Below are positions 4,972 to 57,028 of a stretch of DNA of 57,028 bases, in pieces. A program made the translations under genes and the position numbers. This stretch comes from Hydrurus foetidus. Its lineage: Eukaryota. How positions within the stretch are numbered: the stretch's first letter is position 1; each line of letters begins with the position of its first letter. The DNA lies in the NCBI GenBank assembly GCA_900617105.1, contig UYFQ01000125.1, forward strand, positions 1 through 57,028. Reading direction: 5' to 3'. The notes beneath the pieces were generated by a model. It did no database searches. It had not been told where the DNA came from and saw only the letters and a program-made list of their open reading frames with translations.

Positions 4972-5114
4972 GGGTGCCAGCGAGGAAGACATCCCGCCAT
5001 TCGATAACATTTAGTTAGACATTACTGCTTGAAAAACAATTCACATCTATTTATTGCTGACATGAAAATCCAATGCGTGCCTGGGTGCTTCAACTACTGC
5101 GTGCCTGTTGGGTG

Positions 5115-32489: not shown

Positions 32490-35400
32490 TTATAAAACTC
32501 GTCCTATGACAGTAGCAGTGCAAAGGACTCTAGATGCAGGATCTTTCGAATCTTTAGTGGCGTCTCTAAGATATATCGAAAATGGAACGATTCTATCCTT
32601 TTTCACTACTTCACTGCTCTGTGCCTTGCCTTCTCCTTCTCCTACCACCTCCGCATTATCTCCTTTACTCTGACTATCACCCTCCTTCCCCACTCTCCCT
32701 CTACTCCCCGCAGGTCTGGGATCAAAGCAAGCAATGCCTTCGTCATTCACATGAAAAGACGCGTCTCTCTCAATCTGTTTCCACGCCTTGGACGCTTTAT
32801 TAACGGAATCGGTAGGTTTAGCCGCATATCCGGGAAAAGAAATCATCGAGCCTAGAGGGACTTCTGATGGCGCGTAGACTGGCGAGAACTTGGATCAAAT
32901 GTGCGGAATTAAACAGTTAGGTAGAGGAATAAGTGATGAGGTTACATGTGACTTTGTTTTACTTGATGAGGTTACATGTGACTTTGTTTTACTTGATGAG
33001 GTTACATGTGACTTTGTTTTACTTGATGAGGTTACATGTGACTTTGTTTTACTTGATGAGGTTACATGTGACTTTGTTTTACTTGATGAGGTTACATGTG
33101 ACTTTGTTTTACTTGATGAGATTACATATGACTTTGTTTTACTTGATGAGGTTACATGTGATGTGATGTGATGTGGATTGAATAAGGGAGTTGTCAAGAG
33201 AAAAGCAGCGCAAGAGATCTAGCAACTAGTACATCAAGAAGAAGGATACGTCATGTACTAGTGATGAACCTGAGCTCTCTCCAGACAATTTGTTGTAACA
33301 TGAGAACAATAGCATGTAAAGTCTTCCAACATGACATCGTTTCTTTTCATCATTATTCTCTCATCGACAATTTTCGCGTAATTATGACAGGACAAACATG
33401 ACAGATAGTAGAATACAAACAATGTAACGCAGTTTAGTTCATCTTTTAACACTTGATAAGAACTACAACTCTTATGTACGTTACAAATGCTGTAACTCAC
33501 GACTGACGCACAATGATTAATGAGATAGTACGTATGCGTATTTACTATTTACCTTGTCGGTTTCATCTGTGCTGAAAAGAAGCATGACGCTGGATGCAAC
33601 ACCAAAGAACGCTCTTTCCTTCAAATTACACAGGACCACCATGTTACGGCCAATTAGGCCGTCCATACCAGAACTATTTCCGGCTATCATTCTTTGAGCT
33701 GTAACTGCCGTCCTAAAAAGAGAACAAGGAAAATGCATTCAGTACTGGTGAATCATGTTCAAATTGAGTGGAGGGATAGTGGTAGTGATATAGGTGTAGG
33801 TAGTGCTTGCAGTAATAACGGATGTACATGATTTCTAAAACTGTCTAGTAACGGAAGAAACACTTCGTGTGAGACACTGATCAACATGAACAATCACAAA
33901 ACATCACATCAAACAGTACACGGCAAAACTGAACAAGAAAATATAAGTAGAAATATAAGCAGATGTACAATGCAAATGCATCGAGAGATGGTTGATCTGC
34001 AGTACCTCATGATTCCGTCACTGGATCCAAGGTCCACCACGGTCACCACTAGATTGAGGGCGGTCGGGTCCGGGTGGGGCCCCACTGACACGACCTTGCC
34101 CACTCGCAGCTAGGAGTGACATGTGATAGAGTAGCAGCGGTAGGGTGCAGGTGTTACGAACAGTTTTATATTTTATAGATTTGACGTCAATATCAAATAC
34201 TATAAAAGTGACAATCAAATTCAAAATAAATATCAAAGTAAGTAAGAATATCAATCACAATAAGTATTAATAAAAATATCACATCATATACGAGAGTTTG
34301 CGTGATAAAAAAGGCTGTGTAATCACTTTCAGTACTATTTGTTTGAGTCCTCACACTCAACCCATATCAGCACTACATCATTTGAGTGTTTTTGCGAATT
34401 GTTTTCACTCATTTTTCGCACCAAACGGATTGGGTAGCGTGCAGTAACGGTTAAGTTGAGTGCACAAAAGACAAGAAGTCGTTCGAAAAGCGAAAAGTGT
34501 GTGAAAGTGAGGTTACAAAAATACTCTGATATTCTTTTCCTTCCTCACCTCTAACAGCGGGAGGGCAAGTTCACTGAGAGTTATACCGGAAGACGTACGG
34601 CCAACAGCTCTCCCTCTGGGATTGGATCCGACTGGCCGGGTAAGTCTACTGGCACTCCTACCACTGTCTCTGTTGCTGTCACTGCTGCCTTCAAGATTAG
34701 AAGGGGCACTGTCCGTGCTCTTGTCCATAACGTCCCTTTCTGCACTTCCCTCTCCCTCTCCTAGTCCTTCTTCATCACCCTCTCCTTCACTCTCCCCTCC
34801 ATCTTCACCCTCACCATCTACTGACGCTGTTCTCGTTCCTCTCGGGCCAGCCCCTCCCATTTCCCATGAAGATTCGTCAGATCTGCTCGATCTAGACCCT
34901 CCCTGTTCGTTGTCCCTTGCAGGCCCTCTACCTCTCACTGATTGTTTAGATGCTGATCCTTGTAACAATTCAAACTCCATCAATCTGCTGTGCGACATGA
35001 GCAGCAACGCATCAACAGCCTCTTCTGCGCTATCAGATGCCCACAGTGCTTCAGCTATAGCTAGATGGCATTCTGACGCTTCGCATCTCAAAAGTCTCTC
35101 TAGTGGCATGTCTAGTAATTTATTACGATGTTCAACTGGTTCCCCTCTCCCAGACAACAATCCCACCTTAATCAAGGTGTCATCAATAGATCTCGAGTTC
35201 TGAATTAAAGGGACTTGGCGTGATAAGTCTCTGAAATGCTCTTCAGGTAGAGGACGGTAGCGGCAGAAGAATTCAAAATGCCAAGGTAAGAAATAAAAGG
35301 TGTGTCTTTTTCCGTGATCATCCGATCCGAAGTGGTCTTTAAAATGCACAGAAAGTTCCCAGTATATAGCAATTCTTTCTTCTGCTGTAGGATACCAGCT

Positions 35401-36522: not shown

Positions 36523-36813
36523 TGTCGGGATTCGGCGGTAATCCAGAAACGGAAAACGGTAGAAACAGAATTGGTTTTTAAGTTTACCGAGTGAAAGATT
36601 GTGATTGTGGAATGGAAACGATGAGGTGAATCGAGTGGAATGAATGCAATTGAAATGGACAATGTGTAGCTGTTGGAGAACTGGTCGCGACCAGTTCTCT
36701 TCTGAACTGCTTCAACGTGGAAAGATCGGATCGTCATCGTGCCGTTGGGACCGCTCGGTTGTTCGGTGAGCATTGTGTTGTGTGTTTGTGTTTGAAATGA
36801 CAATGCAATGACA
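36523..36813 (-). repeat. 3' LTR, family B
   Basis: Same sequence as 41844-42134. Confidence 0.97.
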
Positions 36814-36902
36814 TGCGCCGGTAAGTGATATATGATGAATCGATATGTGGCTTATGTTATATTGAGAAATGTGGAGTACTATATGTAGGGAAGGGTGAGA
36901 AA

Positions 36903-39900
36903 TTACAATGATGAGTGAGGGTTGTGTGAAGTAGTTGGAGTGTTGAGTAGTTTGCTGCGGAACCATAAGAATTTGGAGGGGGTGAGGCTTTTGGTGAGTC
37001 CATCGGCAATCATGTCGTGAGTACCTATGTGTTGGGGGACAATCTCTTTGGTTTTGTAAAGCCAGCGTATGTAGTGTGATTTGAGGGCGATGTGGCGGGA
37101 CTTGCGGGTGATCTGGTGTGCGGTGGTCAGATTGATGGCTGGTTGGTTATCTTCGAGGATAACTGTTGGAGATATTTGGGGGAAGCCTAGATCTGCTGCA
37201 AACTGTCGGAAGAATTTGACATCTTTCGCGCATCTTCCGAGGGCGAGATACTCGGCTTCGCAGGGGCTGAGGGCGATGCCGGAAGTTTCAGCGGAAGAGT
37301 GGACGGCGAATGGAGCGTTGGTCGTGCCGATCTGGATAGTGTACGCAGAGTGAGAGTGTCCGTCCGGATGGCATGCGTGGGATGAGTCAGCGGCAGCGAG
37401 GATAGTGACTCCGGATGGAAATGAGGATGGGTTGGCGGAGAAAGTAGGGCCGATGTGGGGGCAGCCTTTGAGATATCGGAGGAGGTGGATTTGTTTTGAA
37501 AGGTCGGATTGGGTTGGGGAAGTGTTTCGAGTGCATAGGTGGACAACTTCTTTTCTGATATCGTGTCGAATGGAAAGTAGGAATATGAGAGTGCCGTTGA
37601 TGCGTAAGAAGCGGGTGCGGTCTACTGGGGTAAGGTCGGATGGGGGTCGAAGAAGTTTGCGGTGGATGGTGTAAGTGCGGGGGGACGAGGTCCATGCCAG
37701 ATTGATGTAAGAACTTAATGATGTGGGCGCCTTGGTCGAGAGTACATGAGTGGTCAGCGTTACGTGTTAGACGGACTCCGCAGACACCTGTCGAAGCATC
37801 ATTGAAGGCTATGGGTCCGTAGCGTCCTGTAAGGATGGTTTTGAGTTCATCGCGTAGTGTACGGGAGCAAGTGACGTACCATCCATCGTCGACATGCATG
37901 TTGAGGGTCAGTGAGTCGGCGGGGTTGTCGGGACATTTCTTATAAAAGCTGTGGTGGTCAGAGGGTGTTGGGTGAAAGCCAGCAGATGTTAGGAGGTTGA
38001 TGAGGTCTTTGTCATATTCGTGGTTGGCTTGCTTTATACCATAGCAACAGCCAGTGATTTCTGCGAGCTTGTTGGCGAGGGGACTTGGGAGGTCGGCCGG
38101 GAGGATCGCGATTAGCTGGTGGCCGTTGGTCATCTCGCGTGTGAGCTTGTTGTGGAGGAAGGCGCCTGGAAAATCGAAGTCTCCAAGAAGGAGCTGGTCG
38201 AGGCAGTTACGGTGTGCAGCATCGGCGAGGTAGGAGCTGAGGATGAAGGCACGATTGGTTGTGTCGGAGGTTCCTGCGTATGTATCGTTGTAGGATTCAC
38301 GTGGTTGGCGGCTACCGTCGATGGCGAGGCGAGCAGTGACAATGCCGTTGGATTTCTTCTTGATCAGCATTTGACTACGTAGGAAGATGGCTTTGGATTC
38401 GACACTGGAACGAGGAATGAGTTGAAGGGACTGGTAGGTGTCAAAATGTTTTCCCAGTTCCTTTGCTATTCCTGCAGCAATGTCGGAGGCAGGTAGGAGC
38501 TGCGAGGCTTTACGTATGGACATTTCAGCACGTTGGGGGGTAAGCGGTTGGGGTTCAAGGAGCGTGTGTCGATTGTTGAGGGGAATTGTTGGAGGATTGT
38601 CTATACGGTGCTGGCGATTGCGAGCTGCGGCGAGTTTAGCATTGTCGAGTTTACGTTGGGCAGCGTTGATGTACGCGGAGGGAGGGGGTAAAGGAGGTGG
38701 GACCAGTGTCGAGGGTAGAGAATAACAGCCTCGCCAGAAGTTGGTGGAATGGGATGAAGGATGGGGTGGAGGGATGGATGAGGAAGGAAATGGAAGGAAT
38801 GGAAGGAATGGATGGGGGGGGGGAATGGAAGGGATGGGGTGGAAGGATGGGGTGGTGGTGGATGGGGGACGGAGGAATGGGGTGGGTGGACGGAATGGTG
38901 GAGGGTGGATGGGAAGGATGAGGATGGACAACGGGGGAGAAGGGATGTGACCTGTCACTGTGGCGATGGCTTCAGTGTGAGGTGTATCAGGGAGTTGAAT
39001 TACAATGTTTGGTGATGGTTGGGTTGATGTCTCTGCGGTTGGAGGGGGTGTTTGTGTGGTTGGAGTTGTTGGAAGGGGTGTTTGTGCGGTTGGAGTTGAA
39101 GGGGGAAGGGGAACGTTGGGGACGAATGGTTTTGGGCTCCAGTTGAAGGGAACGAAGTGACGGGGGAAGGGAGCGGTTGGGCGGCGGGGCACGATTGCAC
39201 CGTTTGCAAGAAGGAAGAGTGTACGGCCGGTGAGAAGATCAGGAGCCATGCATACTCCAAGTTCGGCCTTGGGTTCGGCGTTTGCAGCGGTATGGTTAGC
39301 TCTAGCCAGGGCGTGGCGCTTATCTGTATGTTGAGTTACCATGCAGCAGGAGCCGAATGGGAAGGGGTGGCGGGTGGGTTTGTGGCCGTGGAGGAGTTCA
39401 TTGGGGGTAGATGGAGAACTACGTACGTTGATGAGGGTGTTCCGCGTAGCAGCTATGGCCTTGTGTAGGTAGAGAGTATACTTTAGTGGGAGGTGGTAGG
39501 AGAGGCCTGAGAGGGTGGCGGTTGTAAGCTGCCGGAGGGTGAGGATGGAGCGCTCAACGCGTGCGGCGTGTTCTCCAGGGGGGGAGAGCTGAAGGGAGAT
39601 TCCGAGGGATCCAAGTGGTGCAGCGAGGGAAGTGTTGATCTTCTCACAGTCGCCGTGAAGGGTGTGAACGCGATGGTGATGTGCATTGTACGTGGTGGCG
39701 ATAATGTGGTGTAGGGCTTTGAAGACAGCCGGAGTGGATTTGGATGAGGCACCAACGACGGAGAGGTGGCCAGTGAACTCGTCTACTATGATGATTTCAT
39801 GGGTGTGTAGGCCTGGGGAGGGCTCTGGGAGGAGCTGGGGGTCGAAGCTGAGGACGGCTCCAAGTGAGGTGGCGGGGGCGCTAGTGGAGGGGGGATGGGA

Positions 39901-40646
39901 GGGACTGCGGTGTTTACCAGCGGTGCAGTGGGGGCAAGGGCCGCGGAGTTGGCGGTTAAGGGTGACATCGGAGCAGGTTAAGGTGCTGAAAGGGAGCTTG
40001 CCGGTGGAGAGGTTGACACAGAGGCTGCGATCGGAGGGGTGGCAAAGTTCAATGTGGAGGTCTTCAGCAGCATCAGCGCGAGAGCGCTGCTCAGAGTTGA
40101 TATGGGGTACAGCATGCATGAGGGGTAGGAGGGTAGGCTGCTCTGCGGTAGTATGGGGTACGAGGGAATGCGCGGCCATTGGGGGTGATAGTATGAGAGG
40201 GGTTGATTGATGAAGCGTGGAGGAGGGCGGCGAAGTCTACAGGGGTGGGCTAAGAGGGGTCCTGAGGGGGAGGAGCGGATAGTGACGTGACTAAGGGGGC
40301 GAAGGGGGTCAGGTCCATATGTAGCACCGCAGCGTTGCATTTGGCCCAGGCTGAAGAGGTTAACGGGTAGTGTCGGAGAAAAGTAGGCAGAGTTCATAGC
40401 GTTGGTGGTGGGGAGGCAGAGGAGGCGGCCGCGATGGGTGACCGAGCAGGAGCCGCCGACACCTCCGATGGAGAAGGTGTGAGGGAGTGGAGCAAGATCG
40501 TAGAGTAGGGAGGCATCATTGACAGTGTGGAAGGAGCAGGCGTTATCCCAGTAGGACTGATGGTGGTTGAGTGAGGTTGGTGTACTGGAGGAAGCGAGGG
40601 CGAGTGGACGGGAGAAAAGTGCAAGGGAGGTCGTGGGGGCTGGTAG
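36903..40646 (-). pseudogene. Family B pol (PR-INT-RT-RNase H), several frameshifts as assembled
   Basis: Protease YWDNACSFHTVN; integrase H..H..CPHC, LSFDP, HGDCE, VERSI; RT TARLAIDGS, FDFPGAFL, CYGIKQA, HVDD; RNase H SPCEAEY, LEDNQ, IADGLTK; stop at 36905-36903. Confidence 0.9.
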
Positions 40647-41828
40647 TCAGGCGGAGTCCGAGGCGTCGGAGGCGTGGTCGAGTTGGCTAAGGAGTGCTCG
40701 GAGGCGTTGAGAGGTATTGGACGGTGTGGGGGAGGTAAATGGTGGCGGCGGAGGGTGGGGAAGTCGGTTGGGGTTCTTGGAACAGTAGGCGGACAGATGG
40801 CCGAAGCGTTGGACTTTGTCGGCGGAAAGGCACCATGTGCAGTGGGTAGGGTGAAGGTGAGGTTTAGGGGTAGAGTCTTTCTTACCGTTTGCAAGACGTG
40901 GACGGGGGGAAGTCGCTGAGGCTTTGGAGGCGATGAGTGCGGAGCCTTGGGAGGAGACGTCGTCGCGTGCGAAGGAGAGTGAGTTTGCGATCTTCCAGCT
41001 CTGCAGTTGGGACATAAGAGCTGTGGGATCTGGGAACCGTCCGGTTGGATGGTTGTGGAGGAGCTCATCAAGGGCGCGGCGGAACTCGTTGCGGTTGAGT
41101 CCTGCGAGGTAAAGGAAGCTAGTTAATTCAGGTATAGATACAAAGCCCGGGTGAACCGCGGACTCGAAGTCGAGCTTGAATGTTTCAGTCATAGTGGTTA
41201 TTAGTTCAATGTAGGATTCATGTGGCAAGTCGGATTGTGAAACATTGACATAAAGGCGGGTGCGATGGAGTTTGGTGGCGGCATTCCCGATGGAGTGAAT
41301 GTCGCGGACCATGACATAGAAGGGATAGCTCCGAGAGCCGATGGGTTGAAGTTGGTAGGTAGGGTAGTTGGGGTGGGTTTTGACTGCGGTGTGGGAGGCC
41401 AAGGAAATATGTCGGTAGAGATGGTCGAGGCAGTCTGTGTCCTCGTCGGAGAACCGACGCTGTGCTGCCGAGAAGATCTTTTTGTCATCTCTAAAGTTGG
41501 TATTGCCGAGGGTGCTGAGGGGAAGAGTGGCGGGATCGAAGTTGGGTTGAGCGGCTTCGGCGTCGGTGGCTTGTCGGCGCTGATAAGTTAAGAGACCTGG
41601 AGTGGGAGCTCCAGTGAGGTCGGCCTCGAGGTCGGCCTTTGTTGGCTCGATTGGAAAGGGTTGGAGCGGGATGGTGGTGTCGGAGAGGATTTGCTGCCCA
41701 GCGACACCAAATTTGGTGAAGCAGAGGAGCTTCAAGGCTTGATGCCACTGCGACCAGTTGTCTGAGTGGAGGTCCAGCATTGGATGTTGAGCAGTGGAAG
41801 TGGCAGCGGCTGTGGATGTGGAGAGCAT
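40647..41828 (-). CDS. Family B gag (393 aa)
   Basis: ATG starts 2 nt after the PBS; LDLHSDNWSQW gag-like N-terminus; CX2CX10HX4C knuckle; ends at a TGA in frame with protease. Confidence 0.88.
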   Translation of the reverse strand: MLSTSTAAATSTAQHPMLDLHSDNWSQWHQALKLLCFTKFGVAGQQILSDTTIPLQPFPIEPTKADLEADLTGAPTPGLLTYQRRQATDAEAAQPNFDPATLPLSTLGNTNFRDDKKIFSAAQRRFSDEDTDCLDHLYRHISLASHTAVKTHPNYPTYQLQPIGSRSYPFYVMVRDIHSIGNAATKLHRTRLYVNVSQSDLPHESYIELITTMTETFKLDFESAVHPGFVSIPELTSFLYLAGLNRNEFRRALDELLHNHPTGRFPDPTALMSQLQSWKIANSLSFARDDVSSQGSALIASKASATSPRPRLANGKKDSTPKPHLHPTHCTWCLSADKVQRFGHLSAYCSKNPNRLPHPPPPPFTSPTPSNTSQRLRALLSQLDHASDASDSA

Positions 41829-41830
41829 TG

Positions 41831-41843
41831 CTTAAAAACCAAT
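41831..41843 (-). promoter_or_regulatory. Primer-binding-site position of family B (ATTGGTTTTTAAG), complementary to its own LTR
   Basis: Plus strand 41831-41844 CTTAAAAACCAATT is the exact reverse complement of 41890-41903 AATTGGTTTTTAAG. Confidence 0.75.
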
Positions 41844-42134
41844 TGTCGGGATTCGGCGGTAATCCAGAAACGGAAAACGGTAGAAACAGAATTGGTTTTT
41901 AAGTTTACCGAGTGAAAGATTGTGATTGTGGAATGGAAACGATGAGGTGAATCGAGTGGAATGAATGCAATTGAAATGGACAATGTGTAGCTGTTGGAGA
42001 ACTGGTCGCGACCAGTTCTCTTCTGAACTGCTTCAACGTGGAAAGATCGGATCGTCATCGTGCCGTTGGGACCGCTCGGTTGTTCGGTGAGCATTGTGTT
42101 GTGTGTTTGTGTTTGAAATGACAATGCAATGACA
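41844..42134 (-). repeat. 5' LTR, family B
   Basis: Same sequence as 36523-36813; flanked by TSD GAGAC. Confidence 0.97.
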
Positions 42135-43007
42135 GAGACAGCAGAGTCTCAGCGGCTAAAAAAAGCGGGACACGGTAGTACACAGTGAACGATGATTTAT
42201 CAGTGATTTATCCGATTTCGTTGAGTTTTCGCTGCGGTATGGTACAGTATCTGGTATCTAGGGTACTGTATGACCTGTAAATCAATATCAACGGTGTAGA
42301 CGAACGATTGCACGGAGGCATGAATCGACTGAGAATAGATCGGCTGACTATCCCGTCTGAATTAGATAGACCTAGAAATGATATGATAAGAATCCGGAGG
42401 ATTGAAACAACCCTCATAAATTAATAAGTGTGCAGCGTACAGTCAATCACGAGGTGGTTAAAACGACCCCATGAAAGTGTTGGATTCTCAAAGCCTGAAT
42501 GCCAAATTATTGACAGTCAGAATTGATAGGTTAGAGATCTTTGCAGACTGGATCAAAGTTGATGATCATCATCGGCTACTATAAATTTAAGCTCTTTAAT
42601 TATCCGAAAAACCTGCCACTTTGACACTGTCTCAAATCCAATCGCCTCTGGTACAATATTTAATTCAAGTGTCCAAAAGTACGGTAATGTTTCAACATGG
42701 CGTTGAAGACGTATTGTGTACTTTTTATTGCATAAAAATCAAAGCTGTACTTGACAAATATCGGATATCTAGTTTGAATCGTCTGAAAGGCTTGTCTAAA
42801 CTACAATGTCTACGATCAACAAATACTCTCACTTTTGTTTCGTATTGTTGCTTTTCGAGATTAATGTATGTATTACCGCGCGTGACGATTAGTAACTAAA
42901 AGGTCTGGTATTACGCTCCGTATCAAAACGGTGCCCAACTTAACATTCCGGCTTTCAACACTATGGATTTGGTTGACTGTAACTGCTGTAGGTGTTGCGT
43001 CCTGAAG

Positions 43008-44042
43008 CAAGGGGGTATAAAAGGAGAGGGGGCGGTTTCGAGACCCATCCCCACTCAAATATTTCTCACCAACCCCTCACCAAATTTTCAGAATTCTGAA
43101 CTACCCGCGGTCATAGTATGGTGCAGTGCGAAGTACCGCATAGTCAAAGAGATTTCAGCCTGTGGGAGCAACTGCGAGCAACTCCACTCCTGAGTAACTC
43201 AAATCTAACGAGGGCTCAATGTTTTATTTCTTACAGCACATGAAACACGTTGTAACTTAAAAATGTCTATCTATTCTATAAAAATCAGCCTTATTTTGTG
43301 GCTGCACAACCGAGACTGCCAATTGCAGGAGCGATCAGATCCTGCAGCAGATCCTAAAATTCCCAATACGTCAAGCCTTTAGAGAGCTATCCAGATGTCC
43401 TGTTAGCCCTGATCGAAGTATAGAAGAGTTGAATACCATGAAATCAATTCCTCGCCAAACAATGCTCGAAAAACAGTTCAACGGCAGTCGAGCAAAGGAT
43501 CACTACCTTCAGCCACGATAAACATCTTCTCGGACATGGTATCGTCGTCCCAGTACATTTTAAACTGTTCGCCTGTAGAATTTGTTACAGCAATGCAGAG
43601 AAAATTAGGTGAAAGTAGACGGCAAATTTTTCGAAATCAATAACTTCATGAATATTGAACTGTGCCTTGGCAAATTCAGGTAATAGCTTTGTTGTGGATA
43701 AGTTGAGCTTTTACCTGAATCTGCCAAGGTGACGATCAGTATTCGAATTTTGACCTCATCAAGCGAAGCTTACCATGATGGGGAAGAACCAAATGGCGAC
43801 ATCCGTCGCAGACAAAATTCGTTGAACTGATGGAGTGGAAAATTATAACACACTATCGCGGCCAATGGACGATGACGCGCTGCAGTTTCTGGGCTTGCTA
43901 CATGCTGCCAAAGTGGAGGTTGAATTCAGCATTCATGATGTCGACTGCACTCGGGTAGTTCAGAGTTGAGTGAAGGCTTGGTGAGAAAAATTTGAGTGGG
44001 GATGGGTCTCGAAACCGCCCCCTCTCCTTTTATACCCCCTTG
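43008..44042. mobile_element. Non-autonomous DNA transposon (1035 bp), 65-bp TIRs, 7-bp TSD; possibly P-superfamily
   Basis: 43008-43072 and 43978-44042 are inverted repeats with 1 mismatch (CAAGGGGGTATAAAAGG...). CCTGAAG flanks both ends (43001-43007, 44043-44049). No long internal ORF. Confidence 0.9.
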
Positions 44043-44239
44043 CCTGAAGCGTGCCAGATCAATGCAGACGTAGACTGATACTCACGTTACACCAACGTCA
44101 CGCATAAGTACAACGCATACGTAGCCCTGAAATTTGACCTGTCCATCCAAAGGGACACACGATGAAAATGTGTCCACTGTTGTAGCATCTCCAAATATAC
44201 TGCGATGTAGTTCCGTCGCGAGGTTACTTCTAAAGAGCT

Positions 44240-46970: not shown

Positions 46971-49900
46971 TCATGCAGACAGGAGTGATGACTCAGCGAC
47001 AACATTAAGTAGCCACTGCTTCAATTGATTGTCCTCCATCTTCGTCATACGGGAGGCATCTATGCGGCGCACAACCACTCCTCTGGACTTTAAGTACGCA
47101 TCTCGCAGCTTGCAGAAATTGATCTTCTTCTCCTGCCTGTGGTGTATGCCGTCCACCTCGATATTGATCACTAGCCATTTGCCTTCAGACGATGCTTCGG
47201 CTTCATCGGTCTTACCAAAGAATGGTATACGAACTACAATGTCACTCTCGAACATATCGAACAAGTACTCGTTGCTAGATACCGTTACTCTAGTCTGTCC
47301 CAATATCTCTACGGCGGCATGATGCATCCTCTTCTCTACCTTTGATGTAAAGTCATCCATGTATTCGCCCTTTGTCATCCTGCGGCGATGCTCGCTACAG
47401 ACCGAGTCAGAGAATTTCGTCCACAACTCATAATTAGTGTCATCAAGAACGTCACGCCTAAAGGGAATGCACAGTAGCACTGCTTGACCGACACTCAACA
47501 AGTCAAGTCTGCTCATGCGATTCACCTCTGTTAAAGCCATTGTGTGGCGTAGAAGAACAGCCAATATTCCAACGCAAAGACGACTGCTCATACTCTGCAT
47601 GCCGTACAATGCGTTGCCTACTGCCTGAGCGTCGAGTGACTCCTTGCAGCTGTGCACCTTATCCGACAGAGCTGATATCATCGATCGCACTTCCACATGA
47701 TCACTGCTCATACTCTGCATGCCGTACAATGCGTTGCCTACTGCCTGAGCGCTCAGTGACTCCTTGCAGCTGTGCACCTTACCCAACAGAGCTGATATCA
47801 TCGATCGCACTTCCACATGATCACTGCTCATACTCTGCATGCCGTACAATGCGTTGCCTACTGCCTGAGCGCTCAGTGACTCCTTGCAGCTGTGCACCTT
47901 ATCCGACAGAGCTGATATCATCGATCGCACTTCCACATGATCACTGCTCATACTCTGCATGCCGTACAATGCGTTGCCTACTGCCTGAGCGTCGAGTGAC
48001 TCCTTGCAGCTGTGCACCTTACTCAACAGAGCTGATATCATCGATCGCACTTCCACGTGATCACTGCTCATACACTGCATGCCGTACAATGCATTGCCTA
48101 CATTCTGAGCGCTAAGTGACTCCTTACAGCTGTGCACCTTACCCAGCAGTGCTGATATCATCGACCGCACTTCCACATGATCACTGCTCATACACTGCAT
48201 GCCGTACAATGCATTGCCCACTGCCTGAGCGCTAAGTGACTCCTTACAGCTGTGCACCTTACCCGACAGTGCTGATATCATCGACCGCACTTCCACATGA
48301 TCACTGCTCATACTCTGCATGCCGTACAATGCGTTGCCTACATTCTGAGCGTCGAGTGACTCCTTGCAGCTGTGCACCTTACTCAACAGAGCTGATATCA
48401 TCGATCGCACTTCCACATGATCACTGCTCATACTCTGCATGCCGTACAATGCGTTGCCTACTGCCTGAGCGCTCAGTGACTCCTTGCAGCTGTGCACCTT
48501 ACTCAACAGAGCTGATATCATCGATCGCACTTCCACATGATCACTGCTCATACTCTGCATGCCGTACAATGCGTTGCCTACTGCCTGAGCACTCAGTGAC
48601 TCCTTGCAGCTGTGCACCTTATCCGACAGAGCTGATATCATCGATCGCACTTCCACATGATCACTGCTCATACTCTGCATGCCGTACAATGCGTTGCCTA
48701 CTGCCTGAGCGCTCAGTGACTCCTTGCAGCTGTGCACCTTACCCAACAGAGCTGATATCATCGATCGCACTTCCACATGATCACTGCTCATACTCTGCAT
48801 GCCGTACAATGCGTTGCCTACATTCTGAGCGTCGAGTGACTCCTTGCAGCTGTGCACCTTACTCAACAGAGCTGATATCATCGATCGCACTTCCACATGA
48901 TCACTGCTCATACTCTGCATGCCGTACAATGCGTTGCCTACTGCCTGAGCGCTCAGTGACTCCTTGCAGCTGTGCACCTTATCCGACAGAGCTGATATCA
49001 TCGATCGCACTTCCACATGATCACTGCTCATACTCTGCATGCCGTACAATGCGTTGCCTACATTCTGAGCGTCGAGTGACTCCTTGCAGCTGTGCACCTT
49101 ACTCAACAGAGCTGATATCATCGATCGCACTTCCACATGATCACTGCTCATACTCTGCATGCCGTACAATGCGTTGCCTACATTCTGAGCTCTCAGTGAC
49201 TCCTTGCAGCTGTGCACCTTATCCGACAGAGCTGATATCATCGATCGCACTTCCACATGATCACTGCTCATACTCTGCATGCCGTACAATGCGTTGCCTA
49301 CTGCCTGAGCTCTCAGTGACTCCTTGCAGCTGTGCACCTTACTCAACAGAGCTGATATCATCGATCGCACTTCCACATGATCACTGCTCATACTCTGCAT
49401 GCCGTACAATGCGTTGCCTACTGCCTGAGCACTCAGTGACTCCTTGCAGCTGTGCACCTTACTCAACAGAGCTGATATCATCGATCGCACTTCCACATGA
49501 TCACTGCTCATACTCTGCATGCCGTACAATGCGTTGCCTACTGCCTGAGCGTCGAGTGACTCTTGACATTTTTTTATCATGATTGTAATGCTGCCAAGTA
49601 GCTCTAATGATTGACGTGTTTTCAATTTGTTGTTCTGCAGTCCAAGCAGAGCCATCGATATTGAATGGGAAGGTACTGCCTCTCTGTTTTGAGTCGACTT
49701 TACCAGAGCTGCTGTCATTGAAGCCACAACAGCTAGATATCCATCGTCGTCCTCTACTAAGCACTGCAGACCATACAGAGTAGCAGAGATATCGATAGGT
49801 CTCCAAGAAGCCGATGATAGAATCTCAACCTGTGACGCAATAGCTGGCAGGTGACGTTTTAAATGAAAGTGGGATTTGTTCCCAGATGATTTCTTCCCTG

Positions 49901-50051
49901 TGATGCGCATGAAGTCCGATATCTCACGTACAGTACATCCAGGCTGCCATTCCTCCACGTACGCATCATCAATTTTAGACGATTTACCACCGGAAGATGA
50001 ATACATGAATTTGCGCTTATGAATGCCCTCCACCGCATCGCGCAACGCCAT
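46971..50051 (-). CDS. Tandem 40-aa helical-repeat (OPR-like) protein with C-terminal RAP domain, 1026 aa
   Basis: Unbroken ORF with 2 degenerate plus 16.5 near-identical repeats ESLxAQxVGNALYGMQxMSSDHVEVRSMISALxxKVHSCK. C-terminal SDIV...NIEVDGIHH...KLRDAYLKSRGVVVRRI matches the RAP/DUF559-like pattern. A possible splice acceptor just before the ATG means the N-terminus may be incomplete. Confidence 0.85.
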   Translation of the reverse strand: MALRDAVEGIHKRKFMYSSSGGKSSKIDDAYVEEWQPGCTVREISDFMRITGKKSSGNKSHFHLKRHLPAIASQVEILSSASWRPIDISATLYGLQCLVEDDDGYLAVVASMTAALVKSTQNREAVPSHSISMALLGLQNNKLKTRQSLELLGSITIMIKKCQESLDAQAVGNALYGMQSMSSDHVEVRSMISALLSKVHSCKESLSAQAVGNALYGMQSMSSDHVEVRSMISALLSKVHSCKESLRAQAVGNALYGMQSMSSDHVEVRSMISALSDKVHSCKESLRAQNVGNALYGMQSMSSDHVEVRSMISALLSKVHSCKESLDAQNVGNALYGMQSMSSDHVEVRSMISALSDKVHSCKESLSAQAVGNALYGMQSMSSDHVEVRSMISALLSKVHSCKESLDAQNVGNALYGMQSMSSDHVEVRSMISALLGKVHSCKESLSAQAVGNALYGMQSMSSDHVEVRSMISALSDKVHSCKESLSAQAVGNALYGMQSMSSDHVEVRSMISALLSKVHSCKESLSAQAVGNALYGMQSMSSDHVEVRSMISALLSKVHSCKESLDAQNVGNALYGMQSMSSDHVEVRSMISALSGKVHSCKESLSAQAVGNALYGMQCMSSDHVEVRSMISALLGKVHSCKESLSAQNVGNALYGMQCMSSDHVEVRSMISALLSKVHSCKESLDAQAVGNALYGMQSMSSDHVEVRSMISALSDKVHSCKESLSAQAVGNALYGMQSMSSDHVEVRSMISALLGKVHSCKESLSAQAVGNALYGMQSMSSDHVEVRSMISALSDKVHSCKESLDAQAVGNALYGMQSMSSRLCVGILAVLLRHTMALTEVNRMSRLDLLSVGQAVLLCIPFRRDVLDDTNYELWTKFSDSVCSEHRRRMTKGEYMDDFTSKVEKRMHHAAVEILGQTRVTVSSNEYLFDMFESDIVVRIPFFGKTDEAEASSEGKWLVINIEVDGIHHRQEKKINFCKLRDAYLKSRGVVVRRIDASRMTKMEDNQLKQWLLNVVAESSLLSA
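47583..49562 (-). repeat. Coding 120-bp tandem array, 16.5 units
   Basis: Exact 120-bp periodicity, visible as alternating near-identical 60-nt lines; no indels seen. Confidence 0.98.
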
Positions 50052-50295
50052 TTCCTATAAAACAGATCGTAGACAACAGAACGATGCGCGAGTAATGACC
50101 AATGATCGATTACAGATCACTGCAGAATCGATATTCCTAAATTTGAGAAGAACAACAACTCTCGAACATTGCGAATTTCTTCATTAACTTCCGTTAAAAT
50201 TGTAACGGAATCTGAGAAACCTGAAATATTTATACGGTACAGTATAGCTATGGCGTGCCAAACTGTCCAAAATGGTATAGAATGCGGGAGTGCCG

Positions 50296-51866
50296 TGTTG
50301 GAGTATCCGGAGAAAAGACATTGCTGCAGTTGTATAGTATATGCGTGGACCCCGACCGTCAGCGGTATGTGCCCTGGGGGTGCAGATCGTGGACCGTTGG
50401 ATGTTTGGGCTCATAGAGCCATTCATTCATCTATCTTCAACTTGGATAGAACCATGTGCAATTGCGTTGATATGTAAAGCTTCGTTGCCGTCTTGATTGA
50501 TGCCGGTGCACAAGTTTAATTATCAAGTAATACACACTACAAGTCTACTTTTACGAGCCTTGGGTCACCGGTCGCACAAGTCACAAAGCATCCGGGCTTC
50601 GAGAAATCCCAACATAATTAAACTAGATCAGCGCATCGAGATGCCGCCGAAGAAACAAGAAGAACCAAAGTCAGCTGCAGAGCAGTGCATGCTGAGAATC
50701 GGACGCTACAACAACATAGTGCAGTGGAGGGAAGACATGCAGAACGAGGCATGCGGCCTGTACGGTATGACAGGCACGTTCTTCACGACCAACGAGAGTT
50801 ACGTCCATCCGTATCCTCGAGAGGAGGATTACAATCCCACCTTTCAAACGGTGGAAATCGATACCACGACGCGGGTACCGAAAATGAAGACGAGGACGAC
50901 GACGAATCCGTGAACCTCGAAAATGTCGAGATCGGGCCACAGCTCCCACCAGCGCCTCCTGTAGTGTACTCCGAGGCACTAATCGACAGACTGCGAGCCA
51001 ATGCGTTTGAGGGACGCCGTAAGGCAGTTGAAACGCAAAAGCTCTTTCCGCTTATGTGGTCGAGAATGTCGACAGGGTCGAAGTCTAAGGTGCGAGAGGA
51101 GCCAGGCTTCGAACAGGCACGCCTAAGATTGGACAGTGTGAAACTGTGGGAGTACATCAGAAGGAGTCACCGAACACGCATTTATGGCGAGGATGACTCG
51201 ATGAGAGCAATGAATGTGCACGAGCAGACAAACAGGTACAACTACCTCAGACAGGGTGAGCGAGAGGTAATCGGCGACTTCAAGACGCGCTTTGATAACC
51301 AGGTATCGGCCAACAGAGGTGTGGGCATGGCAGATGTGGAAGAAGTGATTAGAGCAATCGACTTCCTCAGTAAGTTGGACCCAAAAAGGCATACCGATAT
51401 GTTGACACTGATGCGTAACAACGCTGTACAAAACCTGCCGAATAGCTTCCCTTCCACCTTAGCCGGAGCATACAGGGTGGCGTCATCCTGGACCAGCTCG
51501 GGCGGAGCAGTCCCCCTTTGCGCCGAGCAACATTCCGCGTTCCTGACAGATTCTTTGGTAGGCACAAAGGAAAAAGTCTCGGGAAAGGGAGCAAAGGGGA
51601 AGACTGCAGGAACGAAGAAGAAATCATCGTCAGTGATCTGTTTCGTATGCGGAAACACAGGACACTTCGCCAGAGATTGCGAACAACGCAAGGATTCGGA
51701 GCATGCGATGCTCACCAATGTCGAGGAGGACATCGAAAAAGATGACGAGAGCATAGGAGCAGCATTCGTCACGACAGACGAGTTCGCCCTGTTCACTCGC
51801 AGTCATGTGCTGCTAGATAACCAGGCGTCTGTAAACATATTTTGCAATCCGTCATTGCTGACGGAT
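50296..51866 (+). mobile_element. Family A copy 2, 3'-truncated (5' LTR 50296-50614, gag from 50641, ends inside protease)
   Basis: Closely matches 1-~1585; same PBS TAATTAAACT at 50615-50624; homology stops after VLLDNQASVNIFCNPSLLT. Confidence 0.95.
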
Positions 51867-54189
51867 TGCACGTACGTATGTACGTGTGTACGTGACCATA
51901 CAAGTGTACGCTATGCTACATGCGTGCGTACGTACGTACATATTGACCATGTACGTGCATGTGTAAGTACATGTGTGTGCGTATGCATATAATAATTTGT
52001 ACTAACATATGCACGTACGTATGTACGTGTGTACGTGACCATACAAGTGTACGCTATGCTACATGCGTGCGTGCGTACGTGCGTACGTACATATTGACTA
52101 TGTACATGTGTAAGTACATGTGTGTGCGTATGCATAAATGAGTATGCACTAACATGTGTAAGTACGTGTGTACGTGTGCATGTTATCATATCTGCATGTG
52201 TACTTACATACGTACGTGCCGCATAACGTACATGTATATATTTGTAACTATATTTGCAACTACATTACTACAGACATAGCTTGATAGAATCAAGTGGTCT
52301 GACACTCCCCGTAGTGAAGATGTAGTGTAAAATAATGCATGTTTACTTATGAGCTACCTTTATAATATTAGAATTAACATAGTATATGTGTGATCAAGAC
52401 AAATACAATATTAAAACATAATTAGTATAGTGCTCTTTAAAGATTTCGTCTCTGAGACTGATCTATAATTTGATTTAGAAGTTTATTAAATATTGGTTGA
52501 GAAACTCTTTTTGTACCAATATCTGAATTATTATCGCTTTAACAACTACGCAAGTACCATCAGCAACCTTCTCTTTGACCCAGTTTTCGGTGAGGTCGAG
52601 GTGCCGTAGGTTGCGTGTCATGTGTGCTGCCTTAGAATGGTATATACAGGCTTGGTTGTCTTCTTCAATAGAGGTTGGACCTTGGACCCATCCCATCATG
52701 TTTAGGATGCCTCTGTTGGCTATGACCTCTGCTTTGAGTGTGTGGTTGACAGCCTTGATTTCCGACTCTGCCGTTGATGTTGATATGCTGCCTTGGTCGG
52801 TGGAACACCAGCAGATAAGGTTACGGCCGAGGTATCCAAGATATGCAGTCTGGGAGTGGCTATTGTCGGGATTACCACCCAAATCTGCATCGCATTGAAA
52901 CCGGAGTTGGAGTAGCGTTGTCATAGTCTCGATGTCTCTGGGTCCATCGTGTCCATGGAACACTAGTCGATCACTTCGTGCGTACTTGCAGTACTGCAGT
53001 AAGTGTTTGAGGAATTTGATATGTCTGGGACCTGGGTTGTTACTATAACGGGACAGTACATTGAGTGCATACAGAATGCCGACCATGGTATGTACCATAC
53101 CGTGCATTAGTTGACCCACGACCCTCCTGTACGGGTACTTCATACACTGCATACGTTCCTCAGGGGTAGAAGCGTTGTCTAGTTTTGACAATGCAGGTTC
53201 TTGGTCCCCATTTGGGTATCGTAAGTGCATGTCCTTTGCACCAGATATATTAGCTTCTTTTATTATTGAACCAATCATGCGATGTTGATCCATATAATAT
53301 GTGCCATCTTCATCACGCTGAATACGAATACCAACGAACTCCTTGTCAGTTGCATCAGTGACTTCATACTTGTGTGCATTGAAGGTGGCGATGATCAGAT
53401 CCTATTCATCAAGTTTGTCCGAAGGACCAAACCATCTGAAGTCATCACTGTGACCAATGATAAGCATGGGTCTACCATCTGTGGTCCATTTAAAGAAGAA
53501 CTTGAGGTCCCAGGGTGTGTTCTTGTAACCACACTCGAAGATACAAATATCAAACTCAATGGAAAAGTTTTGCCCTGCAGGTGGGAATCCATAAAGATTG
53601 CCGACAGCCTGAAAGCAGAAACCGGGTGGGCAAGTGTATCCCTGCGGTGTCTTTATGTGCACCGGGAAGTTAACATTTGCTCTTGTAATGAGGTAAGCAC
53701 CAATGAGGTCACCTCCTTTCATTACTAGTCCATATGCTGCTGCAATGCTTAGTGCCATCTTGATGGAACACGATGATACATTTCCGCAGTATACGGCGTC
53801 GGGGTCGAAGTCCACGAGTGGTATCATCATATCTCCCCGTCCCACTAAACGGGCTTTTTTCGTACCGTCGGTTTTTATACTAAAAAGCCACATCATTGGT
53901 ACCAGGTGTTCGTCAATGTATGGTACTAATACATGTAAACATGAGTTCTTCTCGAATTTCTTTAATTCAGTATCTATTGCGTTTTTCCATTCAGGAGTAG
54001 CCATAGCTTTCCAGAATGATTTTGGCACATTTAGTTGATCGAAATTGATGAATATTTTTTCGTGATGACTTGCTTCAATCAATGAGAGAAAATGTTCGTG
54101 ATTTCTATCATGTGTAGAGTACCAGTAGACAGCATCGTCATTTTCAATGTTTTGAATTGGTGTATTAATACCAATGTCATTATCATCGA
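51867..54189 (-). mobile_element. Copia family C, older degenerate copy: RT-RNase H, PPT and truncated 3' LTR (51867-52304)
   Basis: Near-duplicate of 54933-57028. TGG>TAG stop at 53402-53404 and a 10-bp deletion near 52537. On the minus strand, PPT GGGGAG is followed by TGTCAGAC. Confidence 0.92.
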
Positions 54190-55233
54190 TGTAAGACTAA
54201 ATACAAGATGTCACCTTCTAGCGTTCGCAGCGAAGGTGAAGAAGCAGCTGCAGGCTACCGTTTCAATTCAGTGAGCTATCGAGTAGACGAAGCTGTGAAG
54301 TATAACGTATTAAATTCTGATTAGAGTTTACAGATAGCCACGCAAAAGAGCTATCGGAACAGTTCATGACAGTGAAACTACCTTGAGACAAAGTTCACAG
54401 CGAGATGTGTTGTTCATAGCATGTGCTTGAGGAACGTTGCATGAATGCTTATAGTAACGAAGTGTTTTGGCGATACTGAAGAATCATGAAAGGCGAACGT
54501 TCATTTGCGTGAGGTCAGAGGGTTCGTACTAACTGCTACATGGCGATAGTACAGGGGTACGTATGCGTGTATATGTATATGAACGTACATGCGTGATTAA
54601 CCACTATATGGCGATAATGCGGGTACATGTATGTAGAACGTATGGGTAAGTGCAAGAGTTATCCACGTATGTACACCTATATACATCTATGTACTACGCT
54701 ATTGGCGATCATTCATACGTACATATTAGGGCTATGGCATACGTAATGGCGGTACGTTGTGCGTAATGTGTATTTGTACTGGCTTGTATGCGTACATGTG
54801 CGTGTGCGTGACCATGCAAGTGTACGCTTTACGTGCGTATCTGCGTGCGTACGTGCGTACGTGAATAATGACGCATTACGTAATGTAGAATACAATGTGA
54901 TGCGTGTATATATAATAATTTGTACTAACATGTGCACGTACGTATGTACGTGTGAGCGTGACCATACAAGTGTACGCTATGCTACATGCGTGCGTGCGTG
55001 CAACGTACGTACATACATATGACTATGTACGTACATGTGTAAGTACATGTGTGTACGTATGCATAAATGAGTATGCACTAACATGTGTAAGTACGTGTGT
55101 ACGTGTGCATGTTATCATATCTGCATGTGTACTTACGTACGTACGTGCCGCATAACGTACATGTATATATTTGAAACTATATTTGCAACTATATTACTAC
55201 AGACATATCTTGATAGAATCAAGTGGTCTGACA
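54190..55233 (-). repeat. 3' LTR, family C, containing degenerate TACG/TGTA tandem repeats
   Basis: TG...CA ends with an imperfect terminal inverted repeat; its right part matches ~51990-52304. Confidence 0.85.
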
Positions 55234-55365
55234 CTCCCCGTAGTGAAGATGTAGTGTAAAATAATGCATGTTTACTTATGAGCTACCTTTATAATATTAG
55301 AATTAACATAGTATATGTGTGATCAAGACAAATACAATATTAAAACATAATTAGTATAGTGCTGT

Positions 55366-57028
55366 TTAAAGATTTCGTCTCTGAGACTGATCTATAATTT
55401 GATTTAGAAGTTTATTAAATATTGGTAGAGAAACTCTTTTTGTACCAATATCTGAATTATTATCGCACGATTTAACTTTAACAACTACGCAAGTACCATC
55501 AGCAACCTTCTCTTTGACCCAGTTTTCGGTGAGGTCGAGGTGCCTTAGGTTGCGTGTCATGTGTGCTGCCTTAGAATGGTATATACAGGCTTGGTTGTCT
55601 TCTTCAATAGAGGTTGGACCTTGGACCCATCCCATCATGTTTAGGATGCCTCTGTTGGCTATGACCTCTGCTTTGAGTGTGTGGTTGACAGCCTTGATTT
55701 CCGACTCTGCCGTTGATGTTGATATGCTGCCTTGGTCGGTGGAACACCAGCAGATAAGGTTACGGCCGAGGTATCCAAGGTATGCAGTCTGGGAGTGGCT
55801 ATTGTCGGGATTACCACCCAAATCTGCATCGCATTGAAACCGGAGTTGAAGTAGCGTTGTCATAGTCTCGATGTCTCTGGGTCCATCGTGTCCATGGAAC
55901 ACTAGTCGATCACTTCGTGCGTACTTGCAGTACTGCAATAAGTGTTTGAGGAATTTGATATGTCTGGGACCTGGGTTGTTACCATAACGGGATAGTACAT
56001 TGAGTGCATACAGAATGCCGACCATGGTATGTACCATACCGTACATTAGTTGACCCACGACCCTCCTGTACGGGTACTTCATACACTGCATACGTTCCTC
56101 AGGGGTAGAAGCGTTGTCTAGTTTTGACAATGCAGGTTCTTGGTCCCCAGTTGGGTATGGTAAGTGCATGTCCTTTGCACCAGATATATTAGCCTCTTTT
56201 ATTATTGAATCAATCATGCGATGTTGATCCATATAATATGTGCCATCTTCATCACGCTGAATACGAATACCAACGAACTCCTTGTCAGTTGCATCAGTGA
56301 CTTCATACTTGTGTGCATTGAAGGTGGCGATGATCAGATCCCATTCATCAAGTTTGTCCGAAGGACCAAACCATCTGAAGTCATCACTGTGAGCGATGAT
56401 AAGCATGGGTCTACCATCTGTGGTCCATTTAAAGAAGAACTTGAGGTCCCAGGGTGTGTTCTTGTAACCACACTCGAAGATACAAATATCAAACTCTATG
56501 GAAAAGTTTTGCCCTGCAGGTGGGAATCCATAAAGATTGCCGACAGCCTGAAAGCAGAAACCGGGTGGGCAAGTGTATCCCTGCGGTGTCTTTATGTGCA
56601 CCGGGAAGTTAACATTTGCTCTTGTAATGAGGTAAGCACCAATGAGGTCACCTCCTTTCATTACTAGTCCATATGCTGCTGCAATGCTTAGTGCCATCTT
56701 GATGGAACACGATGATACATTTCCGCAGTATACGGCGTCGGGGTCGAAGTCCACGAGTGGTATCATCATATCTCCCCGTCCCACTAAACGGGCCTTTTTC
56801 GTACCGTCGGTTTTTATACTAAAAAGCCACATCATTGGTACCAGGTGTTGGTCAATGTATGGTACTACATGTAAACATGAGTTCTTCTCGAATTTCTTTA
56901 ATTCAGTATCTATTGCGTTTTTCCATTCAGGTATAGCCATAGCTTTCCAGAATGATTTTGGCACATTGAGTTGATCGAAATTGATGAAGAGTTTTTCGTG
57001 ATGACTTGCTTCAATCAATAGAGAAAAT
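55366..57028 (-). CDS. Family C pol, RT-RNase H portion (5'-partial, intact frame)
   Basis: KKARLVGRGD, GDLIGAYL, NLYGFPPAG, HSDD, YPYRRVVGQL, CDADLGG, STAESE, EEDN, SDIGTK. Confidence 0.93.
   Translation of the reverse strand, partial: FSLLIEASHHEKLFINFDQLNVPKSFWKAMAIPEWKNAIDTELKKFEKNSCLHVVPYIDQHLVPMMWLFSIKTDGTKKARLVGRGDMMIPLVDFDPDAVYCGNVSSCSIKMALSIAAAYGLVMKGGDLIGAYLITRANVNFPVHIKTPQGYTCPPGFCFQAVGNLYGFPPAGQNFSIEFDICIFECGYKNTPWDLKFFFKWTTDGRPMLIIAHSDDFRWFGPSDKLDEWDLIIATFNAHKYEVTDATDKEFVGIRIQRDEDGTYYMDQHRMIDSIIKEANISGAKDMHLPYPTGDQEPALSKLDNASTPEERMQCMKYPYRRVVGQLMYGMVHTMVGILYALNVLSRYGNNPGPRHIKFLKHLLQYCKYARSDRLVFHGHDGPRDIETMTTLLQLRFQCDADLGGNPDNSHSQTAYLGYLGRNLICWCSTDQGSISTSTAESEIKAVNHTLKAEVIANRGILNMMGWVQGPTSIEEDNQACIYHSKAAHMTRNLRHLDLTENWVKEKVADGTCVVVKVKSCDNNSDIGTKRVSLPIFNKLLNQIIDQSQRRNL

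Follow-up and report, generated by a model that had tools for sequence, protein, structure and literature searches.

Animals, apicomplexans, green algae and Paulinella are known to have proteins that join arrays of helical repeats to a C-terminal RAP domain (PMC8635915, PMC7729196, PMC6212722). The Chlamydomonas OPR-RAP proteins of the NCL group (NCC1 and NCC2), Arabidopsis RAP and Paulinella OPR-RAP all carry two-helix repeats of 38-40 residues followed by a RAP-type domain, and NCC mutants acquire new RNA targets (PMC8635915). The base-recognition code of the HPR proteins is uncharacterised (PMC12691811). TALEs and TALE-like proteins (STAR and others; PMC11417379) combine a near-identical repeat scaffold with few variable sites, cryptic repeats, a terminal half repeat and recombining arrays. 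Here we describe a gene of Hydrurus foetidus in which features of these systems meet. The stretch analysed (the window) comprises 57,028 nt of contig UYFQ01000125.1 and holds an intronless open reading frame (ORF; P0001, 46971..50051, minus strand) of 1026 residues, which ORF calling, structural modelling and structural matches describe as an OPR-like solenoid followed by a Vsr-like RAP domain.

The reading that we favour, with slightly more confidence than doubt, is that this nuclear gene product is a sequence-programmed RNA binder and endonuclease of mitochondrial ancestry, that it has evolved in the style of TALEs, and that it now acts outside the mitochondrion on a site of roughly 17-19 nt. 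According to this model, an OPR/HPR/FASTK-type solenoid would hold single-stranded RNA in its groove, with each unit reading one base through residues 1 and 4, beside an invariant Q3 and N7, and would feed the RNA to the Vsr-like (RAP-type) domain, which would cut beside the site. Exchange between units by recombination would alter the array and hence the target site. The protein would belong to a young subfamily in which the scaffold is homogenised while its code residues stay diverse and are shuffled between units, so that target sites would turn over as in TALEs. The subfamily itself would act on mitochondrial RNA, as suggested by the presequence-like extensions of the paralogues.

A mosaic array of near-identical repeats

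The protein begins with an N-terminal cap delimited by comparison with paralogues (residues 1-83; 49803..50051), the first 15 codons of which are out of frame relative to an ancestral extension and which carries, at residues 47-68, a basic motif conserved across the family. Two degenerate repeats follow (residues 84-126, 43 residues in length, and 127-166; 49554..49802), and then an array of 16 near-identical units of 40 residues (167-806) with a half unit of 17 residues extending to residue 823 (47583..49553). The C-terminal part consists of a degenerate helical linker, defined from the structure model (824-899; 47355..47582), and a Vsr-like PD-(D/E)xK domain of RAP/DUF559 type, assigned by Pfam DUF559 and structural matches (900-1024; 46980..47354). 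All of these features lie on the minus strand.

An earlier note, made from the letters of the sequence, had described 16.5 near-identical repeats preceded by two degenerate repeats and closed by a half repeat, and we recovered both flanking elements. In the assembled sequence the repeat number agrees: the motif AQ[AN]VGNALYG recurs 17 times at a spacing of exactly 40 residues, and Tandem Repeats Finder reports a period of 120 with 16.5 copies and 94% matches (47583-49562). The mean identity between array units is likewise 94%, and amino-acid differences occur only at positions 1 (D5/S9/R2), 4 (A11/N5), 14 (S14/C2, with C in units 12-13) and 30/31 (LS, SD, LG or SG), the same sites that the note had listed as position 1, position 4, a dipeptide and S/C in two units. 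The order of the position 1/4 pairs (DA, SA, RA, RN, DN, SA, DN, SA, SA, SA, DN, SA, SN, DA, SA, SA, DA) was also recovered as an identical string.

At the DNA level, 14 of the 16 units are distinct, the longest exact internal repeat measures 227 nt, and units 11-13 form a distinct older block with its own synonymous changes. All six combinations of D, S or R at position 1 with A or N at position 4 are present, and the alleles of codons 1 and 4 are separated by two or three bases per codon. The four-gamete test was failed by 53 of 78 informative site pairs, implying a minimum of five recombination events, one of which would separate codon 1 from codon 4; the test counts linked sites of a single codon separately, and recurrent mutation would mimic the signal. 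The units of the array are recombinational mosaics, with exchange below the scale of one unit, in agreement with the reshuffling that had been proposed. The occurrence of every position 1/4 combination, together with the four-gamete failures, indicates that old code alleles persist and are recombined on a homogenised scaffold.

It is highly improbable that the array is really shorter and was expanded to 16 units by an assembly error. Such an origin would fit P0097, which is identical at 382 of 386 aligned residues, 99% in the caps, and carries a half unit only, and also the absence of any other 40-residue array with more than 14 repeats among 197 relatives, the present protein having 19. The diversity of the DNA units, the older block and the shortness of the longest exact repeat nevertheless argue for a genuine array, and the contig also resolves an identical 291-nt pair of long terminal repeats (LTRs) and a 2.25-kb duplication of 96% identity, which suggests a long-read assembly. 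Collapse of the P0097 array in a short ENA contig is the simpler reading. Comparison across relatives, which the note had proposed, shows that both repeat number and repeat order differ. Records with near-identical C-termini contain 7, 8 and 3 units in one case and 11, 7, 5 and 5 in another, and these protein data alone fit real variation in unit number and short-read collapse alike, the two being indistinguishable on this basis.

Predicted fold and nuclease-like domain

A structure model of residues 687-1026, encompassing the last 3.4 repeats and the C-terminal domain and built on 59 sequences, reached a predicted local distance difference test score (pLDDT) of 93.2 and a predicted TM-score (pTM) of 0.88. 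A single-sequence fold of the full protein (pLDDT 45.7) was not used. In the model each unit is a helix pair, with helix A at positions 2-11 and helix B at positions 20-35. Positions 1 and 4 are predicted at the N-cap and first turn of helix A, and positions 30 and 31 inside helix B. A helical wheel places positions 3, 7, 10 and 11 on the exposed face of helix A, with position 4 flanking that face at 101 degrees to the core.

Foldseek at E<=0.001 returned six matches to the model, namely four Toxoplasma mitoribosomal chains, Tetrahymena mL104 and a Polytomella ATP-synthase chain, followed by FASTKD4 (E 0.003, best query TM-score 0.55). We also ran VIA-align against 48,161 chains and considered the 50 best-ranked chains. 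The first match was the Toxoplasma mitoribosomal chain 9g6k_Li (Z 15.0, root-mean-square deviation [RMSD] 6.1, 302 residues aligned), with a further Toxoplasma chain at Z 11.9; the second was the FAST1-FAST2-RAP region of FASTKD4 (9gek; Z 14.4, RMSD 5.2, 279 aligned), and the third the Polytomella ATP-synthase chain 6rd4_2 (Z 13.2), with matches also to Chlamydomonas mitoribosomal chains. Values of Z below about 13 are common for helical repeats in this comparison, in which small-domain matches and a coherent set of matches weigh most. For Plasmodium RAP proteins, too, chain 2 of 6rd6 and mL104 have been reported as templates (PMC8190603). No significant match came from sequence searches of the PDB, and a profile match to mL104, in the same helix-A register, was weak (E 0.31). 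Judging by the whole-model match to 9gek, the linker at residues 824-899 would occupy the place of the FAST-like helices of FASTKD4.

The folds of small nucleases bore a close resemblance to residues 900-1024, which matched I-Bth0305I (Z 11.7, RMSD 2.5, 95 aligned), Vsr (1cw0; Z 11.5, RMSD 1.9, 102 aligned) and NGO0050 (Z 11.5, RMSD 2.1, 94 aligned). The domain passes the Pfam cut-off for DUF559 (PF04480; 22.8 versus 20.6 bits), and the isolated domain left Pfam RAP (PF08373) unmatched at E<=0.1; PF08373 was also absent among the 25 of 55 Pfam families listed for 31 family members. As a lead, language-model features of residues 880-1026 have as their three best Atlas clusters groups that are 96-100% RAP (scores 0.91-0.92). 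The earlier proposal of an OPR-like solenoid with a RAP nuclease-like fold therefore holds for the predicted fold, through the structural matches, but not for the Pfam assignment, where DUF559 takes the place of RAP. Pfam matches of the full protein (Spectrin, DUF3898, PMEI, Dak2 and others) were discarded as summed weak repeat matches, with no passing stretch.

In 106 non-redundant C-terminal domains drawn from 139 BLAST hits, the conserved residues are D937 (in 96), the E965-x-D967-G968 motif (100, 87 and 90, respectively), H971 (79) and the R983-D984 pair (96 and 104). Position 980, which would correspond to an Asp in Vsr and DUF559 proteins, is Cys in this protein. Catalysis by Vsr uses a D51/H69 pair (PMC11879112), of which D937 and H971 are, by motif order, the likely equivalents. 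In FASTKD4 the Vsr His is replaced by Asn, and this protein is reported to have shown no nuclease function (PMC11879112); FASTKD5 cleaves RNA in vitro, with D429 as a key residue and the site unresolved (PMC12242768). Cleavage by the C-terminal domain modelled here is plausible.

These matches place the protein, as modelled, in the OPR-RAP/FASTK structural superfamily. Like OPR proteins, it has a tandem two-helix solenoid within the 38-40-residue range (period 40, helix pairs in the model), and its helix A agrees in register with the published xPQxLSNxxW-type example (PQDVSN..W versus AQAVGN..Y; PMC12691811) when compared by eye. The PPPEW motif is absent from all units; close to one in four OPR motifs shows no recognisable PPPEW (PMC12691811). 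Published OPR repeats are degenerate, whereas the units here are 94% identical, and an organelle targeting peptide appears to be lacking, as indicated by composition and a broken extension. Given the outcome for Pfam RAP, PPPEW, degeneracy and targeting, we do not class the protein as OPR or NCL in the strict sense. It further differs from the NCL proteins in its fixed 40-residue period and its lineage; within the 57-kb window one copy was seen, and no gene cluster of the kind that the NCL paralogues form. Both families are lineage-specific expansions. With FASTKD4, FASTKD5 and the apicomplexan HPR-RAP proteins it shares the whole-model match and a Vsr-like pocket, but their units are of 37 residues and degenerate, and sequence identity is only 9-13%. 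Vsr, I-Bth0305I and DUF559 proteins have in common with it the C-terminal fold, the D...E-x-D-G-x-x-H...R-D pattern and a DUF559 score above the cut-off, but they are DNA nucleases without a helical-repeat arm. The bacterial DUF1601/SKWP and RAP repeat proteins show related repeat features in the Atlas; DUF1601/SKWP proteins have units of 37-42 residues, other C-terminal domains and host-directed or unknown roles, and SKWP solenoids have been likened to RAP proteins (PMC13667924).

The TALE-like architecture proposed in the earlier note stands as regards layout and array evolution, but not as regards homology. TAL repeats are of 33-35 residues, whereas the unit here is of 40 and different in sequence; the TAL family is absent among 12 Pfam matches at E<=1, and no TALE chain occurs among the 50 best-ranked structural matches. 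TALEs read bases with an adjacent diresidue in a loop, while the main variable sites here are non-adjacent and predicted at the start of helix A, as in PPR and OPR proteins. The present protein, unlike TALEs, has a nuclease-fold domain of its own and relatives that bind RNA. The likeness is one of evolutionary design and, by repeat length and sequence, the protein is not a TALE homologue. The resemblance does raise the alternative of a TALEN-like nuclease of double-stranded DNA, no longer mitochondrial and directed, for example, against giant viruses or retroelement DNA. Cryptic repeats, a uniform array and a half repeat would suit such an enzyme, a 17-unit array would provide genome-level specificity, and Vsr and I-Bth0305I, among the closest small-domain matches, act on DNA. 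We consider it very unlikely, as the characterised repeat relatives all bind RNA (PMC8660880, PMC6212722), the array is net acidic, a scan of viral contigs found relatives in 0 of 122 candidate stretches, and no significant target was found in the window. A search of BFVD returned C-terminal-domain matches only, none at E<=0.001.

Candidate base-reading positions

Conservation among orthologues was assessed in a conserved long paralogue, for which 19 of 21 candidates were anchored (mean pairwise identity 74%) and 16 remained after removal of near-duplicates, each with 11 repeats; the test ranks the 21 positions with more than 1.5 bits across repeats. Position 1 showed 3.01 bits across repeats and 0.19 within a repeat across orthologues, and position 4 showed 2.07 and 0.16, respectively. 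Ranked as repeat-specific yet invariant among orthologues, positions 1, 4 and 2 came first to third of the 21 (ratios 0.94, 0.92 and 0.90), with position 30 ninth (0.64) and position 31 fourteenth (0.48). A second test compared neighbouring units at least 32/40 identical, which were present in 22 of 256 other proteins and represent 10 scaffolds. Positions 4 and 1 differ most (0.47 and 0.41), followed by positions 30 and 2 (0.32 and 0.31); at a threshold of 30/40 the order becomes 1, 4, 30, 34 and 37. In L002 and P0096, adjoining units differ at positions 1 and 4 only.

Across the family (117 units), positions 19, 20, 24, 31, 34, 35 and 39 vary more than positions 1 and 4, so that tolerance alone fails to explain the variation of the latter in near-identical units. 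Taken together, these data point to positions 1 and 4 behaving like specificity residues, as the earlier note had anticipated; the dipeptide at positions 30 and 31 looks less code-like. A published logo, which rests on a thesis, gives one primary OPR determinant and three preceding positions (PMC13126933).

The same positions can be accommodated by a largely sequence-independent RNA clamp or scaffold, comparable to the mitoribosomal OPR/HPR proteins, ASA2 and RESC6, in which positions 1 and 4 would form a helix N-cap box and the Vsr-like domain would not cut. This we regard as unlikely. The best structural matches are indeed structural subunits, FASTKD4 is described as lacking activity (PMC11879112), and S, D, N, T and G prevail at position 1, with E common at position 4. 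However, the His that is replaced by Asn in FASTKD4 is likely kept here, and multi-base codon differences at positions 1 and 4 persist in otherwise identical units. Furthermore, R, V, E and K, which are poor helix N-caps, are near-invariant among orthologues at position 1 of particular repeats.

The broken 5' region, relatives and significance

The paralogues mostly start with 100-150 extra residues that are basic, Ser/Thr-rich and acid-poor, a composition typical of mitochondrial presequences. The present ORF begins 15 codons ahead of the conserved region with an acidic N-terminus, its first 35 residues including 6 acidic ones compared to 0-3 in 23 of 26 other proteins listed. Alignment to paralogues reveals two remnants of the extension, both on the minus strand: one of 13 codons with one in-frame stop, in a frame that differs from that of the ORF (50236..50274), and one of 11 codons with one stop, overlapping the ORF out of frame (50011..50043), after which about 45 codons present in paralogues are missing and the frame is shifted. 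They are split by an insertion of about 190 nt on the same strand that is unmatched in paralogues (50044..50235). Joined, the remnants align end to end with 24 consecutive extension residues of P0083 and P0096, and their best score (54.8) lies above those of all 500 dinucleotide shuffles and of all 60 real control stretches, the highest of which reached 48.4. A Copia-like LTR (50296..50614, plus strand; 93% identical to the LTR at 5114-5434, with zf-CCHC and RVT_2 matches) lies 244 nt upstream of the ATG and seven codons beyond the remnant, where paralogues encode their first ~60 residues.

P0097, from a second assembly, has the identical new start, which is therefore not a sequencing error of one assembly. 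Set against its paralogues, the presequence-like extension of this copy is broken by stops, an insertion, a frameshifting deletion and an LTR. The ~190-nt insertion begins with GT, an AG after a T-run sits 3 nt before the present ATG, and the insertion may be an intron. Rescue of the ancestral start by splicing was judged by eye and rejected, the visible GT/AG pair leaving the upstream stop in place; a distant upstream exon may supply a targeting sequence. With the extension lost and the rest of the frame open, this copy likely works outside the mitochondrion. The organellar RNA role suggested in the earlier note is thus likely for the paralogues and doubtful for this copy. Human FASTK, of the same superfamily, acts in the cytosol and nucleus (PMC5737537), and the long orthologues start with low-complexity sequence that does not resemble a presequence.

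The damage to the 5' region also admits a dying gene, a doubtful but serious alternative: the family and its ancestral mechanism would be the same, and this copy would have lost its presequence and promoter to mutation and Copia insertion, its array evolving by neutral unequal crossing-over. Two stops, the insertion, the frameshifting deletion and the LTR in the ancestral 5' region, in a family with many paralogues and high turnover, are what decay would leave. Yet the two stops fall within 24 remnant codons, against none in 386 unique body codons, and no stop or frameshift interrupts the 640 array codons; under uniform decay this contrast has a chance of about 0.003, a figure biased by the long ORF having been the entry point. 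The open unique body beside a decayed remnant favours, subject to that bias, continued selection. The likely catalytic residues are intact, the same start occurs in the second assembly, and the long orthologous members also lack presequence-like N-termini.

Several observations weigh against a programmable RNA endonuclease acting outside the mitochondrion. The array carries a net charge of -8 and no Lys or Arg is fixed in helix A, whereas the mitoribosomal OPR-like proteins hold RNA through basic grooves (PMC8660880). FASTKD4 shares the fold with no nuclease activity found, and the site in FASTKD5 is unresolved (PMC11879112, PMC12242768), while the structural neighbours Vsr and I-Bth0305I cut DNA. 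The margins of the neighbour-unit test are modest, with 5 of the 10 scaffolds represented by a single pair and the scaffolds related to one another; positions 1 and 4 fall on a helix capping box and on a helix A start that is conserved in orthologues, so that part of the signal may be structural. The summed remnant score (304.6) nearly ties with that of the best real control (299.8), and P0097 is too similar to reveal purifying selection. Finally, when the window was searched for a target by assigning a base to each repeat type, no informative site matched perfectly. The LTR pair of a Copia-like element contains a TG/CA-rich 17-mer (36777 and 42098) that departs from the repeat-type pattern at one position; since 8% of 150 shuffles of the repeat order match an LTR as well, this site stands at chance level and was not counted. 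With no target found in the window, the defence against viruses or transposable elements raised in the earlier note is unsupported so far and a matter of speculation.

The family was surveyed by word searches (73 and 53 overlapping matches) and by a profile search of 1.84 billion representatives, which gave 972 matches at E<=1e-30 and 3717 at E<=0.001; member details derive from 150 of the 3717 that were listed. The named eukaryotic members among the matches listed are chrysophytes, namely Chlorochromonas danica, Epipyxis and Spumella vulgaris. Internal identity lies below 50% in 145 of 197 proteins with two or more 40-residue units. In about a dozen close paralogues 88-97% of the unit scaffold is shared, compared to only 57-80% of the caps. 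Within the literature searched, from which subscription papers and theses were largely absent, we found no description of a chrysophyte 40-residue family or of a near-identical OPR-type array. The architecture of repeats and RAP domain is already known; the chrysophyte 40-residue family, with a near-identical array exposing candidate code positions, appears to be new on this basis.

A conserved chrysophyte protein of 1200-1700 residues (P0016, P0020-P0031, P0037-P0040, P0080 and others) has an invariant repeat code (RE VA EN NA KE DA DA NE TE DG SH), low-complexity ends, a start that is not presequence-like and a degenerate C-terminal domain, and is likely a cytosolic RNA-binding factor with one conserved target. 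P0164 (1420 residues), from a Pseudomonadota metagenome-assembled genome (MAG), has 12-13 such 40-residue repeats, which resemble one another at about 70% and precede an OTU protease domain, and P0140 (1871 residues) has roughly 30 units of 39 residues that vary mostly at positions 2 and 4; both are possible host-directed nucleic-acid binders. L007:3399-5303 and L014:1109-3082 lie in a bacterial-type context and have degenerate helical repeats with DUF559/MTES_1575-like C-termini below the Pfam cut-offs. L003, L004 and L010 share repeats of 39-40 residues and a cap motif and have no clear nuclease at the C-terminus; L010, which lies on a 5.8-kb contig assigned to a Verrucomicrobiales MAG, looks eukaryotic and is possibly a binning contaminant. 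In P0071 a predicted tryptophan synthase alpha is joined to the family N-cap and repeats, which may be a gene-calling or assembly join.

The window has a eukaryotic content that comprises Copia-like elements, NSA2, a helicase, Dus and an aminotransferase. The two best matches to NSA2 reach 93% and 91%, the second in a cluster that includes a Hydrurales CCMP1899 member, and Epipyxis, Paraphysomonas, Chromulina and Mallomonas are further named close matches, which makes a chrysophyte source likely. One Copia-like element (36523-42134, minus strand; 291-nt LTRs 100% identical, GC skew +0.49) is likely a very recent insertion. A second Copia family is represented by three related pieces (1-5434, 50296-54093 and 54791-57028) that include a 96% tandem duplication (51871-54093 versus 54791-57028). 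Further repeats comprise an AT/CG-alternating tandem repeat of 143-147 nt (51867-52231), a 30-nt tandem repeat with 7.6 copies at 97% (32934-33161), an imperfect 130-nt palindrome (17468-17599) and a pair of 78-nt inverted repeats separated by about 1 kb (43007-44043), possibly a non-autonomous DNA transposon.

At its boldest, and as a rather unlikely proposal, the gene would belong to a chrysophyte family of TALE-style programmable RNA endonucleases, built on a uniform OPR-type scaffold whose two-residue base code is rewritten by recombination. This copy would have left the mitochondrion and would now cleave RNA of the cytosol or nucleus, for example transcripts of retrotransposons or viruses, with short-read assemblies hiding the family by array collapse. 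The degeneracy of natural repeats is a main reason why the OPR/HPR code has stayed uncharacterised. A uniform scaffold that varies only in its candidate code residues, attached to a predicted nuclease, would be a natural tool for reading that code, and reordered units could both reveal it and show whether RAP domains cut. If the reading is true, the protein would offer a compact programmable RNA binder and nuclease alongside PPR and PUF tools. It would also add, in a eukaryote, a second example of arrays that evolve as those of TALEs do, and such arrays are likely undercounted in short-read data.

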